Source: a virus (lineage: Duplodnaviria > Heunggongvirae > Uroviricota > Caudoviricetes). From it: a stretch of DNA of 4,338 nt. The stretch is from the IMG/VR virus record IMGVR_UViG_2737471848_000004, positions 1 through 4,338 of that record. One strand, 5' to 3'. Below, in pieces: positions 1 to 3,000 of this stretch. The position numbers were made by a program. Numbering within the stretch: position 1 is the first letter of the stretch; every line of letters begins with the position of its first letter.

Positions 1-3000
1 GTGGGTGGACTGGTATAACAATCGACGATTGCTGGGAAGGCTGGGTCATATCCCTCCGGCAGAAGCAGAAAAAGCTTATTATGCTTCCATCAGAAACGAT
101 GATCTGGCAGCCTGAGTTCACAGATAAAACACTCTCCAGGAAAACCGGGGCGGTTCACGGCGTATTGCTCCCATCTTCCTGATGACGTTGACATTGATGA
201 AATGGAAAGGGAGATGAAGCAATGACCATCTACATCACTGAGCTTGTAACAGGCCTGCTGGTAATCGCAGGCCTTTTTATTTGGGGGAGAGTAAATCGTG
301 GTTGAGTTAATTTTCTCTGCATTGAGGCTTCTCGGTGCGTCGTGGATGGTGGTGACGTTCATTGTGATTGCCAGCAGTTTTATCCGGTTGGTAGGTGAAG
401 GTAAAGACATGGTGGGTGTGCTTTTCGGTAGCACTCTCATGTGGGTGATTATCGGTGTTATGCCTGTTGTCGTAGCAAAAGTGGCGTGGCGTTTTGTGAG
501 TTGAGGTAACGATGAAGCAAATATCACTTCAATAAATCGCTTTTAAGGCATCACAATCGCTCTGTGGTGAGGTAAGCACGTGCAAGGCATGCAGATAAGC
601 AGCGAGAATGAAAAATGCGTCAGAATGCGTTTGAGGAGGTTTTAAGAAATGAGTACGATAGCTGAGCTTGTCAGGGCTAATTTTCGTGAAGAGTTGGTGC
701 GTTGGTATCGGTATCGTTCATCGTCCAGTTTGCCGCTTGATGAGTTGTATGAGCACTCACCTGCCGCACGGCGCTATCCGCGTGACCGTGTTCTTCGACG
801 GTTGTTCAGACTCAATAATGAGTTTCAGCGCAACAGAATTATCCGGAGTCTGGATTTAAAGTGAAGGAGTGAGCATGAGCGAGCAAATATTCAGAGAGAT
901 TAAGCCACGGTTTTATCGCAAGGTAAGGGTGGTTTATCAGGACGAAAACAAGACATGTGCATACGCCATTCATAATGGTCGGTGGTCAGTGTTCGACACC
1001 AAAAACTTCGAGAAGAACTTCGAGAGGATTAAGGGTGATGAGGAAACTAACATTTGAACTAAGAAGCCCCATCCATCAGCAGAACGCCATTCAAGCTATC
1101 CAGCAAATTCTTCCAGACCCAACCAAACCAATCGTAGTAACCATTCAGGAACGCAACCGCAGCATTCGGCAAAATGCACGCCTTCACGCGATGCTATCTG
1201 AAATAAGTAAGAAGGCTACATATCACGGAAAAGCAAGAAATATTGAGTTTTGGAAGGGGTTATTCGTTTCTGGTTGGCAGATTGCAACCAACCAGCACCC
1301 TGAGATTATATCAGGGTTAGAAGGTGAGCTAATAAACATCAGAGAGAGTACGGCGACTCTATCTGTAAAAAAAATATCCGAAATAATGGACTACATAGAA
1401 GCATATTGTGCCATGAACTCAATTCATCTTAGCGAATGGAGGAATTATGATTGAGGTTTGGGTAGATATCGAAGGGATTCCATTTTATCAGGTTAGCAAT
1501 AAAGGAAATTTCAGGTCTATTACGAGGGAAGTTACAGTAACATCAACCAGACAGAGGCCATATAAGAAAATAATTAATGGCACTAGTGTAAAACCATTCA
1601 AGTGCAAGTCGACAGGATATCTTCAAATAAAGGTATACGGTAAGAAATACAGCGCCCACAGGATAGTTGCGAAAGCATTCTGTACAGGGTTCTGTGATGG
1701 CTTGGTAGTTAATCACAAAAATGGGCGAAGAGATGACAATAGGGCTGATAACCTTGAATGGGTATCACATTCTGAAAACTCAAAACACGGATATAAACAA
1801 AATGGAAGAATACCTATATCGCTAGGTAAATTTAGTGGTGACCATCCTGCCAGTAAAGCTGTTATTTCTACTGACATGAAAACTGGGGAGGAGGTTTATT
1901 ATGAAGCAGCTATGGATGCTGTCAGAGAAGGATTTGATAGTTCGTCAATTAGTCGTTGCTGTAATGGCGAAAGCTCATATCACAAAGGAAGATTCTGGCG
2001 ATTTGCAAATGAAAAAATGAAAGCGCGATGGGGAGATCGGGCTGCATGACTATCAAATCAAATACGCCATCACACGACAAGGACTGCTGGCAAACGCCGC
2101 TTTGGCTTTTTGATGCACTGGATATTGAGTTTGGATTCTGGCTGGATTCGGCAGCGAGCGACAAAAATGCTCTGTGCGCTCACTGGTTAACTGAGGCCGA
2201 CGACGCGCTAAATTCTGAGTGGATAAGCCACGGTGCAATCTGGAATAACCCACCGTACAGCAATATCAGGCCGTGGGTGGAAAAAGCCGCTGAGCAGTGC
2301 ATACAACAGCGACAGACGGTAGTGATGCTTGTGCCAGAGGATATGTCAGTCGGATGGTTCAGCAAGGCTCTGGAGAGTGTTGACGAAGTTCGCATTATCA
2401 CTGATGGACGGATTAATTTTATCGAACCATCGACAGGGCTGGAGAAGAAGGGAAACAGCAAAGGCTCCATGCTGCTGATTTGGCGACCGTTCATCAGTCC
2501 TCGACGGATGTTTACTACCGTATCCAAAGCGGCATTGATGGCGATCGGGCAGGGCGTCAGGAGGGCGGCATGAGGCGACAGCGACGAAGCATCACCGACA
2601 TCATCTGCGAAAACTGCAAATACCTTCCAACGAAACGCTCCAGAAATAAACGCAAGCCAATCCCAAAAGAATCTGACGTAAAAACCTTCAACTGCACGGC
2701 TCATCTGTGGGATATCCGGTGGCTAAGACATCGTGCGAGGAAAACAAGGTGATTGACGCGATGATTTATTCGGGGCTATATTCCTCACGCGCCAGCAAAA
2801 TCTGGCGTCGGGATTAGCACCCCGGATGTTTACGGAGCGATATGAGACGCGCCCGCGTCTTTTTTCATATCGTTTGCACAGTCACATTCGCGATTTATGG
2901 CGGGCTGTGTGGGGGAGCCGAAAGGCTCGCCGGTTTCCGTACCCGGTAGTGCTAACCCCGCACAGTTCGCCACCATGATGATTAGCACCTGACGGTGGCG

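Follow-up and report, generated by a model that had tools for sequence, protein, structure and literature searches.

A C4 antisense RNA family element between ninE and the antirepressor gene of a lambdoid Escherichia coli prophage

An unannotated interval upstream of a phage antirepressor gene

A 4,338-nucleotide stretch of Caudoviricetes DNA (positions 1 to 4,338 of the IMG/VR record IMGVR_UViG_2737471848_000004; here termed the window) from a lambdoid E. coli prophage raises the question of what occupies the G+C-rich interval that separates ninE from ant. The RefSeq annotation of this interval is empty in this genome, and the gene that follows is called "phage antirepressor Ant," with a start identical to the one used here. 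A first-pass annotation, made by inspection of the sequence, had proposed that positions 2890-2980 specify a structured RNA, possibly a phage small RNA, a cis-acting antitermination or processing element, or a regulatory leader for the downstream gene. We found that the element belongs to the known phage C4 antisense RNA family and is no new kind of element. By analogy with characterized members, it very probably blocks translation of the adjoining antirepressor gene and would thereby keep the prophage silent. The gene order in the window is isrK, C4, the ORF6N-type ant, and a Rha/KilAC gene, and the features of the module are collected in Table 1.

Table 1. Features of the promoter-IsrK-C4-ant module in the window
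Feature	Position	Strand	Basis or remarks
Putative sigma-70-like promoter (TTGACG, 18 nt, TATATT)	2753-2782	+	10 of 12 consensus matches
IsrK-type small RNA carrying a1 and b1, with its own terminator	2789-2865	+	Rfam RF01394
a1 site, TTAGCAC	2814-2820	+	Complementary to a' of C4
b1 site, TTACGGAG	2830-2837	+	Complementary to b' loop
Intrinsic terminator of IsrK-type RNA	2844-2865	+	7-bp G+C-rich stem, then T run
Predicted mature C4, 76-77 nt	~2899-2975	+	RF01695 match, fold, and covariation; ends by register with annotated 77-nt P1 C4
b' loop, UUUCCGUAC	2934-2942	+	Pairs with b2 and b1
a' single-stranded junction, UAGUGCUAA	2947-2955	+	GUGCUAA (2949-2955) pairs with a2 and a1
a2 target site, TTAGCAC	2982-2988	+	In ant leader, 7 nt past predicted C4 3' end; exact complement of a' 2949-2955
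Alternative-hairpin arm, GGTGGCGA	2994-3001	+	Perfect complement of 2967-2974
b2 target site, GTACGGAG	3014-3021	+	Holds GGAG Shine-Dalgarno, 8 nt 5' of ant ATG
ant, 234-aa antirepressor with ORF6N N-terminal and P22AR C-terminal domains	3030-3734	+	ATG 3030; Pfam PF10543 (E 3.5e-19), PF10548 (E 2e-27)
Intrinsic terminator 3' of ant	3751-3776	+	9-bp stem, TTCG loop, T run

A conserved three-way-junction RNA on the + strand

Read directly from the sequence, positions 2899-2914 (GGCGGGCTGTGTGGGG) pair with 2956-2971 (CCCCGCACAGTTCGCC) in a closing stem of 16 bp, with 13 Watson-Crick pairs and three G.U pairs (G2903.U2967, G2904.U2966, and U2910.G2960); these are the same pairs that the first-pass annotation had described, and U2898-A2972 is a possible 17th. 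Both hairpins that it had placed within this stem are likewise present, the first being the GNRA hairpin GAGCC-GAAA-GGCTC at 2915-2928 and the second pairing CCGG at 2930-2933 with CCGG at 2943-2946, extended by G2929.U2947. The RNAfold minimum free energy structure of positions 2880-2990 on the + strand reproduces the three-way junction at -50.1 kcal/mol, and the suggested comparison with shuffled sequences came out in its favor (z = -3.92, equalled by 1 of 200 shuffles), with the - strand of the same positions giving -43.4 kcal/mol and z = -2.40. The G+C fraction is 0.675 in 2899-2975 versus 0.458 in the whole window.

Conservation of this fold was assessed in two sets of homologues, comprising 65 and 83 distinct sequences, the second of which was drawn from species-representative genomes. 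The retrieval pattern used for both sets fixed hairpin 2 and part of the a' segment (Table 1); hence, the stem of hairpin 2 gives no covariation evidence and the diversity of a' is undersampled. Hairpin 2 aside, the compensatory changes that a functional stem had been expected to display are strongly supported in both sets. RNAalifold, applied to a structure-blind MAFFT alignment of 66 sequences, recovered the same fold with compensatory changes in 19 of the 26 pairs. In that alignment, 94.9% of the cells are paired versus 32-48% when the partners are slid, and there are 224 double-change cells versus 56 in shuffles, with the observed values being reached by none of 500 shuffles. The second set has 98.4% of the cells paired and 433 double-change cells, values that again none of 500 shuffles reached. 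Across the homologues, the stems contain 295 G.U cells versus 14 A.C cells; therefore, the + strand is the RNA strand, as the wobble pairs had originally suggested, and an element acting at the DNA level or from the minus strand is ruled out. The loops of hairpin 1 alternate between the GNRA and UNCG classes.

Membership in the C4 antisense RNA family

A search against Rfam, one of the checks proposed for the candidate, retrieved RF01695, the C4 antisense RNA of phages P1 and P7, on the + strand with 78.8 bits (cut-off of 45; E 6.4e-15). The match spans model positions 1-87 of 87 at 2893-2977 without truncation, and it recurs, together with the isrK and c4-a1b1 matches described below, when the genome record is searched. 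The supposition that the region encodes a phage small RNA was thus borne out; the implied uncharacterized status of the element has to be given up, as it belongs to a curated family. Matches to mir-4003, SNORD105, istR, and WT1-AS_5 (E 0.7 to 2.7) are far under their cut-offs and are attributed to chance.

The layout is that of a C4 RNA, namely, a 16-bp closing stem, a GAAA hairpin, the b' hairpin, the a' junction, and a 3' ACCA tail. According to two articles (PMC5320573, PMC11143913), RNase P cleavage at a GG(W) site trims C4 to ~77 nt, and the b' loop of this RNA occludes the ribosome-binding site. An RNase P-type context is also found in the window, with AU/GGC at 2897-2901 and ACCA at 2972-2975, spanning 77 nt, and it is kept in 90-100% of the homologues; its U(-1), G(+1), and 3' A-C-C, all of which lie outside the retrieval pattern, are each ~90-100% conserved.

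Two unpaired segments and four complementary sites

The b' loop and the a' junction are predicted to be exposed, with unpaired probabilities of 0.98-1.0 for 2936-2940 and 0.44-0.84 for 2934, 2935, 2941, and 2942 in the former and of at least 0.98 for 2948-2955 in the latter. Residues U2936-C2942 of b' form seven Watson-Crick pairs with 3014-3020, to which U2935.G3021 is added, giving a b'-b2 loop duplex of -10.4 kcal/mol; the b'-b1 loop duplex has a value of -8.5 kcal/mol. These pairings comprise only seven Watson-Crick pairs plus one G.U for b2 and only six plus one for b1, and the b' loop of 9 nt is the shortest seen, versus 12-13 nt. The heptamer TTAGCAC occurs in the window only at 2814 and 2982, plus 2949 as its reverse complement, and TACGGAG occurs at 2831 and 3015 only. 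The direct repeat of a1 and a2 extends to 10 nt (GATTAGCACC), and the complementarity between a1 and C4 stretches to 12 nt at 92%. Whole-molecule RNAduplex runs of C4 against the leader or the IsrK-type RNA were no better than those against shuffled targets (74/300 and 29/300 as good, respectively) and are uninformative because the method ignores intramolecular structure; the local loop duplexes and the co-variation across loci were relied on in their place. The first-pass annotation had overlooked both segments and all four complementary sites.

In a comparison of 94 loci, among which 43 different a'/b' combinations occur, exact complements of at least 7 nt were present at a2 in 95%, b2 in 83%, a1 in 79%, and b1 in 62% of cases, versus 2-5% in swapped controls. 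Thus, b' co-varies with b2 and a' co-varies with a2 and a1. The genes downstream of the homologues are of the antirepressor type (ORF6N, Rha, Bro-N, and P22_AR_N/C) or are short open reading frames (ORFs) in the position of Icd. In the window, b2 overlaps the ribosome-binding site of ant itself.

A second set of interactions involves positions 2967-2974, where the 3' arm of the closing stem of C4 passes into the ACC; a hairpin formed by these with the arm at 2994-3001 shows a2 in its loop. This alternative hairpin is also seen in P1, and an exact match of at least 6 nt is present in 61% of the homologues versus 21% in swapped controls. It is possible that C4 maturation and the display of a2 are mutually exclusive folds that add a further layer of control.

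An IsrK-type RNA and its terminator in the upstream leader

The a1 and b1 sites fall within a full-length match to the Rfam isrK family (74.4 bits versus a cut-off of 50; model 1-77 of 77), whose position 1 coincides with the transcription start predicted at ~2789, and a further Rfam model, c4-a1b1 (RF03163), matches at 2776-2828, likewise on the + strand, with 49.8 bits (cut-off of 46.7). RNAfold places both sites in loops of the IsrK-type RNA, with a1 in the loop of its second hairpin. The terminator that had been noted upstream of the element is real and intrinsic, and a T run (at least five T's) separates a1/b1 from C4 in 72 of 74 homologous contexts. The second intrinsic terminator, downstream of ant, closes the promoter-IsrK-C4-ant cassette. 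A search for the LexA box CTGT-N8-ACAG with up to one mismatch yielded none across the whole window, which leaves no sign of SOS control as in the Gifsy antirepressors, and no C1 operator was seen by eye at the module promoter.

Alternative explanations

The alternative that survives best, although we consider it unlikely, is that the region is mainly a short coding leader whose translation opens the ant ribosome-binding site, with the RNA structure merely gating this process. The earlier statement that there is no plausible ORF here did not hold, as the element shares its sequence with several short ORFs (31-52 codons), one of which, of 31 codons (2897-2992), begins with an AUG at the 5' terminus of the RNA, in a position matching the published orf45 of the Salmonella prophage Gifsy-1. 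Of 66 homologues, 61 have an AUG at this 5' edge. Moreover, a tagged orf45 product was detected in Gifsy-1, start-codon or stop mutations lowered antirepressor activation, and the authors proposed an orf45 peptide with its translation coupled to that of the antirepressor (PMC4825925). However, the ORF starting at the 5'-edge AUG is far from constant: it has 14 codons in P1, 15 in APSE-8, and anything from 8 to 110 overall, or else continues in frame into the following gene. It is this variation in length and frame across the 66 homologues on which we reject a coding leader as the main explanation. The ORF at 2897-2992 has no Pfam match, and AUGA-type coupling is impossible here because it stops 38 nt before the ant ATG. 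Substitutions in the homologues compensate base pairing and are not codon conservative, and the Gifsy-1 authors themselves report conserved nucleotides with variable amino acids (PMC4825925). The conserved A-U-G-G is equally explained as RNase P site context (U at -1, G at +1/+2), and the start-codon mutations made in Gifsy-1 alter that context and the stem too.

That the element controls transcription in cis with no target pairing, be it as a put-like antiterminator or as an attenuator/terminator for ant, we regard as very improbable. Its placement in a leader, with a terminator before it and a gene after it, would suit such a role, and Biere, Citron, and Schuster reportedly concluded in 1992 that the action of P1 C4 ends in premature transcription termination. 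Nevertheless, the long stem lacks a T run (2972-2990 is ACCATGATGATTAGCACCT), and a terminator scan of 2899-3029 returned nothing. The initial comparison with the HK022 put RNAs is not supported, as the element shows no likeness to put in position or sequence and lies in the nin region and not beside an early promoter. The strong co-variation of a' and b' with four distant sites requires a pairing mechanism. Of the suggestion of a regulatory leader, regulation of the antirepressor-like gene is retained as very probable and the simple cis leader is not, since by homology the RNA would be excised and would base-pair via its two unpaired segments.

A degenerate tRNA or tRNA-like relic devoid of a regulatory role can be given next to no credence and is effectively refuted: lambdoid phages often have tRNA genes thereabouts, the acceptor-like stem starts with G and is followed by ACCA, and the C4 family is an RNase P substrate, but ARAGORN found no tRNA or tmRNA in the window, the Rfam tRNA model gave no match even at E values up to 10, the three-way junction with its 16-17-bp stem has neither an anticodon nor a T arm, and co-variation of the unpaired segments with nearby target sites would not be expected of a relic.

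A model for control of the antirepressor

On the basis of these observations, we hold with high confidence that the element is a C4-type antisense RNA in an immunity module resembling immI of P1, which this lambdoid E. coli prophage carries in its nin region. The fold, the family, the strand, the four complementary sites with their co-variation, and the overlap of b2 with the ribosome-binding site were observed here; the mechanism is most likely that of P1, and the transcription, RNase P processing, translational block, decoy function of the short RNA, and target of the antirepressor in the following scheme are taken over from experiments on P1 and Gifsy-1. Transcription would start at the local promoter, and most transcripts would end at the terminator at 2844-2865, yielding the 77-nt IsrK-type RNA with a1 and b1. 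Read-through transcripts, and likewise those entering from the early right operon, would contain the C4 precursor. Host RNase P is predicted to cleave between U2898 and G2899, with the closing stem and ACCA mimicking the acceptor end of a tRNA, and 3' trimming would then leave a stable C4 of ~77 nt. In the ant leader, b' (2935-2942) would bind b2 and a' would bind a2. Since b2 holds the GGAG of ant, this pairing would hide the Shine-Dalgarno sequence and keep ribosomes off, such that the antirepressor would not be made in the quiescent prophage.

A probable role of the IsrK-type RNA is that of a C4 decoy, with its a1 and b1 competing for a' and b'; more of this short RNA would result in derepression, and the antirepressor would then inactivate the phage repressor. 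We further propose, tentatively and with not quite an even chance of being right, that the IsrK-type RNA and C4 are halves of one switch, in which the 77-nt RNA is a dedicated decoy titrating a' and b' and the balance between stopping and reading through at 2844-2865 decides antirepressor synthesis. To our knowledge, the decoy role of a1/b1 in P1 has never been settled, and the literature that we searched yielded no paper mechanistically linking IsrK/STnc1160 to C4. If the proposal of two halves is true, the orf45/STnc1160 of Gifsy-1 would simply be a C4 RNA, and its translational-coupling model would need reinterpretation.

Occurrence and significance

The C4 module is ordinary, though unannotated in this genome. 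Megablast-level relatives are found in 621 of 5,426 complete E. coli genomes, and the module is also common among Shiga-toxin phages. An RNA that gates an antirepressor could affect prophage induction and, consequently, toxin release. The prophage carries several insertion sequences (three IS3, one IS4, and one IS1), and because it is riddled with such elements, the module may be a relic that no longer has a role. The practical value of the finding is modest: it fills an annotation gap between ninE and ant, and it connects P1 C4 with the Salmonella IsrK/orf45 system, which the papers searched treat apart.

Comparison with known systems

The closest precedent is the C4 RNA of P1/P7 (RF01695, with a1/b1 as RF03163), with which the element shares the three-way fold, a closing stem of ~17 bp, the tetraloop hairpin, the b' loop, and the a' junction. 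The immI locus of P1 has the same order of a1, b1, T-run hairpin, C4, a2, b2, and start codon; in both cases, an antirepressor gene follows the module in the same orientation, the first gene after the module (icd in P1) has a ribosome-binding site that b2 overlaps, and the AU/GG 5' context and ACC 3' tail are present. Spacings are also similar in the window and P1 (a1 to b1, 16 versus 14 nt; C4, 77 versus 77 nt; a2 to b2, 32 versus 29 nt; C4 to a2, 7 versus 4 nt), with the b' loop having 9 nt here and 12 in P1. The a' and b' sequences differ from those of P1, which would give a different immunity specificity. The antirepressor is of the ORF6N-P22AR_C type here and Ant1/2 in P1, and the host element is a lambdoid prophage with a CI/LexA-family repressor, whereas P1 has the C1 repressor and resides in its host as a plasmid prophage. 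Unlike P1, the window has no icd-like ORF between b2 and ant, and the b2 Shine-Dalgarno serves the ant ATG directly. Therefore, the P1 route of translational coupling and Rho-dependent termination cannot be transferred unchanged, and the locus belongs to the C4 family, yet its operon is not a strict P1-type immI. Many homologous loci also have no short first ORF.

The isrK-orf45/STnc1160-anrP locus of Gifsy-1 resembles the window in being part of a lambdoid prophage, in having an IsrK small RNA that is served by a separate promoter and terminator, and in the antirepressor-like gene directly downstream. There, STnc1160, a stable RNA of ~80 nt, is generated by processing of transcripts that read through isrK, and IsrK supplied in trans lifts antirepressor translation 139-fold (Hershko-Shalev et al. 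2016, PMC4825925). By means of the compensatory changes G28A/C162U and G31A/C159U, IsrK is paired with a downstream stretch (PMC4825925) that, by rough numbering and not by alignment, lies within or close to a', with a shift of 3 nt relative to the window numbering, so that the pairing approximately fits the contact of a1 with a'. Similarly, G114A/C175U maps, by numbering and not by alignment, to the C4 closing stem with an exact fit (114 + 175 = 289). The authors describe a 45-codon ORF with its stop overlapping the anrP start (AUGA), in contrast to the 31-codon equivalent in the window that ends short of ant, and never use the name C4 (PMC4825925). This comparison suggests that the Gifsy-1 data are open to a simpler reading via C4.

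The APSE phages of Hamiltonella, annotated with an "isrK family sRNA" and a "C4 antisense family sRNA" (Rouil et al. 2020, PMC7313666), have a layout identical to that of the window, with isrK, a C4 with annotated a'/b', an antirepressor-type Bro-N gene, and a Rha-family gene in this order. They differ in being of the Sendosyvirus phage type, in having Bro-N instead of ORF6N as the first regulated gene, and in a nucleotide identity of ~76% that covers the core only.

The CI RNA of P4 (seqA/seqC) is comparable as an immunity RNA cut from the leader of the operon that it controls, with complementary sites on both sides. According to Forti et al., it was reportedly shown in 1995 to be processed by RNase P. 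It is unrelated in sequence and fold, gave no match in the Rfam search of the window, and acts by transcription termination of replication genes and not on an antirepressor ribosome-binding site; a parallel with P4 CI was also drawn by the Gifsy-1 authors (PMC4825925). Finally, the sar RNA of P22 is a small phage RNA that blocks initiation of antirepressor translation (PMC12197685). It is a cis-antisense RNA from the opposite strand of ant, whereas C4 comes from the strand that also encodes its target and uses two short unpaired segments for pairing.

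Identity and fold of the structured element

Sequence comparisons place the structured element in the gap between the NinE and antirepressor (ant) genes among the C4 antisense RNAs, which are a known family rather than a new one. An Rfam scan of the window returned three adjacent plus-strand matches, to C4, to the isrK RNA, and to the "a1, b1 targets of C4," all over the curated cutoffs (see the table). C4 carries two unpaired segments, a' and b', complementary to target sites upstream (a1 and b1) and downstream (a2 and b2). The fold proposed in the first-pass annotation can be read directly from the sequence: a 16-bp stem of 13 Watson-Crick and 3 G·U pairs, formed by GGCGGGCTGTGTGGGG (2899 to 2914) and CCCCGCACAGTTCGCC (2956 to 2971), encloses a tetraloop hairpin (GAGCC-GAAA-GGCTC, 2915 to 2928) and a CCGG/CCGG hairpin (2930 to 2946). 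RNAfold, applied to 2880 to 2990, recovered this three-way structure on the plus strand (minimum-energy and centroid structures alike), with an energy (−50.1 kcal/mol; z = −3.92) equaled by 1 of 200 dinucleotide shuffles, and bore out the suggested strand bias, the minus strand folding worse (−43.4 kcal/mol; z = −2.40). The upstream terminator was confirmed by a terminator scan, and the element is as G+C rich as described (0.675 versus 0.458 for the window).

Features of the promoter-IsrK-C4-ant module
Feature	Position	Strand	Details
Promoter-like site	2753-2782	+	TTGACG, 18 nt, TATATT
"a1, b1 targets of C4" (RF03163)	2776-2828	+	49.8 bits (cutoff, 46.7)
isrK (RF01394)	2789-2865	+	74.4 bits (cutoff, 50)
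a1	2814-2820	+	TTAGCAC
b1	2830-2837	+	TTACGGAG
Hairpin with T run (terminator)	2844-2865	+	Between b1 and C4
C4 antisense RNA (RF01695)	2893-2977	+	78.8 bits (cutoff, 45), E = 6e-15, whole model
Predicted mature C4	G2899-A2975	+	77 nt, by P1 register
a2	2982-2988	+	TTAGCAC
b2	3014-3021	+	GTACGGAG
ant start codon	3030	+	ATG; RefSeq "phage antirepressor Ant" uses the identical start
Terminator after ant	3751-3776	+	9-bp stem, TTCG loop, T run; directly past ant stop codon

Structural covariation among homologues

Homologues were retrieved with a pattern whose only anchors were hairpin 2 and the junction (119 IMG/VR loci and at least 120 loci from species-representative genomes), so that the hairpin 2 stem is invariant by construction and carries no evidential weight. 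In a MAFFT alignment of 63 unique viral sequences with the window, P1, and APSE-8, made without structural guidance, RNAalifold gave the same fold, with 19 of the 26 pairs supported by compensatory changes. The first-pass structure was paired in 94.9% of cells, versus 32 to 48% with partners slid by 1 to 3 columns; double-change cells numbered 224 against 56 expected, and none of 500 shuffles matched any observed measure. A covariance model built from this alignment and run on 100 genome loci gave 88 matches, mostly from Pseudomonas, Burkholderia, Ralstonia, Cupriavidus, and Enterobacterales, with 98.4% pairing and 433 double-change cells in an alignment that leans toward structure because it is fitted to the model; among the matches listed, no pattern hit from an odd phylum fit the model. 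G·U cells outnumbered A·C cells (295 versus 14), and pairing was 94.9% on the plus strand versus 78.8% on the minus strand. Hairpin 1 loops alternate between GNRA and UNCG, and U(−1), G(+1), G(+2), and the poststem A-C-C, all outside the retrieval pattern, are 90 to 100% conserved.

Some bacterial genomes have two C4-model matches within 8 kb (locus L185, 529 to 625 and 7470 to 7566; also L154, L191, and L129), and in locus L125 they lie ~730 nt apart (6873 to 6971 and 7604 to 7700), which suggests tandem or paired immunity modules.

Target sites and alternative readings

The transcription start predicted from the promoter-like site (~2789) coincides with position one of the isrK match. In the window, TTAGCAC occurs only as a1 and a2, with its complement in C4 at 2949 to 2955, and TACGGAG only within b1 and b2. 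The complements carried by C4 are the hairpin 2 loop (b') and the single-stranded junction (a'), whose core nucleotides have a predicted unpaired probability of at least 0.98. The GGAG inside b2 lies 8 nt upstream of the start codon of ant, whose product has ORF6N and P22AR_C domains. With a promoter-like site and a terminator flanking IsrK-C4-ant, these parts look like a self-contained, moron-like cassette within the nin region.

In 94 loci representing 43 distinct a'/b' combinations, an exact complement of at least 7 nt was present for a2 in 95%, b2 in 83%, a1 in 79%, and b1 in 62%, versus 2 to 5% in swapped-locus controls. The 3' end of b2 is usually GGA or AGGA, and the first downstream gene encodes an antirepressor-type protein (ORF6N+P22AR_C as in the window, Rha, Bro-N, or P22_AR_N) or is a short ORF of 60 to 90 codons located where P1 has icd. 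In 72 of 74 contexts, a T run lies between a1/b1 and C4; thus, a separately terminated a1/b1 RNA is the rule in the family.

An 8-nt perfect inverted repeat pairs TCGCCACC (2967 to 2974; the 3' side of the C4 closing stem with the following ACC) with GGTGGCGA (2994 to 3001) in a hairpin that holds a2 in its loop, as in P1, and is mutually exclusive with the C4 closing stem. Its arms match exactly over at least 6 nt in 61% of 134 homologous contexts versus 21% of swapped controls, and this conserved use of the C4 3' stem strand to display a2 is a mildly new point. The a' region (2944 to 2956) is also complementary at 12 of 13 positions to 3087 to 3099 (GTTATCACTACCG), ~20 codons into ant, which could be a third C4 contact site or a chance match.

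The sole inaccurate detail of the first-pass annotation was the lack of a plausible ORF, as short ORFs overlap the element; one of 31 codons (2897 to 2992) has an AUG straddling the predicted RNase P site, at the same position as the published Gifsy-1 "orf45." A coding leader equivalent to orf45 nevertheless lacks support as the main function. The AUG at the 5' edge is conserved in 61 of 66 homologues, but the ORF starting there ranges from 8 to 110 codons or, in about one in five homologues, is fused in frame to the gene that follows, and in the window it stops 38 nt before ant. The AUG also coincides with the predicted RNase P site context. A tRNA relic, a put-like or terminator element, and a DNA-level element are rejected by ARAGORN (no tRNA found in the window), the Rfam and terminator scans, and the G·U versus A·C counts.

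Genomic setting and distribution

The window is 100% identical to Escherichia coli OkiPb01684 (NZ_AP042519.1), within a lambdoid prophage with a LexA-family CI repressor and the gene order NinB, NUMOD4/HNH, Dam, NinE, gap, Ant, Rha/KilAC protein, NinG, phosphatase, and Q; the gap has no RefSeq annotation. The homing endonuclease-like NUMOD4-HNH gene (1447 to 2049) lies tightly between ninB and the Dam methylase gene, and the start and stop codons overlap. Positions 1 to 115 belong to an IS3-family transposase gene (3' end), and the surrounding prophage has three IS3 copies, one IS4, one IS1 (prophage record L001, 8548 to 12115 and 17824 to 19037), and several truncated genes; it is probably defective. 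Downstream of Q (L001, 21765 to 22017), two Rfam families score above threshold: STnc100 (144.7 bits) and, on the other strand, AgvB, an anti-GcvB small RNA (96.5 bits).

The C4 module is already known: the family dates from 1990, when it was defined for P1 and P7, and bioinformatic work in 2010 widened it to Proteobacteria and phages (PMC2864571). C4 and isrK were annotated together in APSE phages (PMC7313666). Relatives of the module are present in 277 phage records, most of them from Stx-converting phages, and in 621 of 5,426 complete E. coli genomes. A 97% identical copy of the E. coli prophage module in phage vB_Apl-pPE4 (PP818812.1, 15553 to 15860), reported from an unexpected host, Actinobacillus pleuropneumoniae, may reflect host mislabeling, contamination, or a very recent transfer.

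Comparison with P1 and Gifsy-1

According to published work on P1, RNase P cleaves at a GG(W) site to yield a C4 of ~77 nt; the b' loop masks the ribosome-binding site, with a' contributing specificity, and full ant repression needs C4 (PMC5320573, PMC11143913, PMC8198154). At the homologous Gifsy-1 locus, experiments showed that a stable ~80-nt RNA, STnc1160, is processed from isrK read-through transcripts and that IsrK in trans raises antirepressor translation 139-fold; by a rough numbering estimate, the compensatory pairs G28A/C162U and G31A/C159U put the IsrK pairing partner in or near a'; G114A/C175U falls in the closing stem (PMC4825925). The IsrK/orf45/STnc1160 and C4 literatures appear to concern one and the same module, a mildly new point; no mechanistic link between them was found in the searchable literature. 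From this published work, we infer by analogy that the window module is transcribed and that C4 would be excised from read-through transcripts and occlude the ant ribosome-binding site via b'/b2 and a'/a2, with the IsrK-type RNA competing for C4 as a decoy via a1/b1.

The P1 record annotates a1, b1, a 77-nt C4 RNA, a2, b2, icd, and ant1/2, and the window shares these parts in the same order (a1, b1, T-run hairpin, C4, a2, b2, and start codon). P1 C4 starts at the G of UUAU/GGUGGGG and ends in GCCACC, and the window C4 is in the same register (UUUAU/GGCGGG and ...CGCCACCA). Unlike in P1, the window antirepressor is of the ORF6N+P22AR_C type, the module sits in the nin region of a lambdoid prophage whose CI repressor is of the LexA family, a LexA box is absent from the window, and the b' loop, at 9 nt, is unusually short. 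P1 has icd, whereas the window does not, so that b2 directly overlaps the ribosome-binding site of ant.
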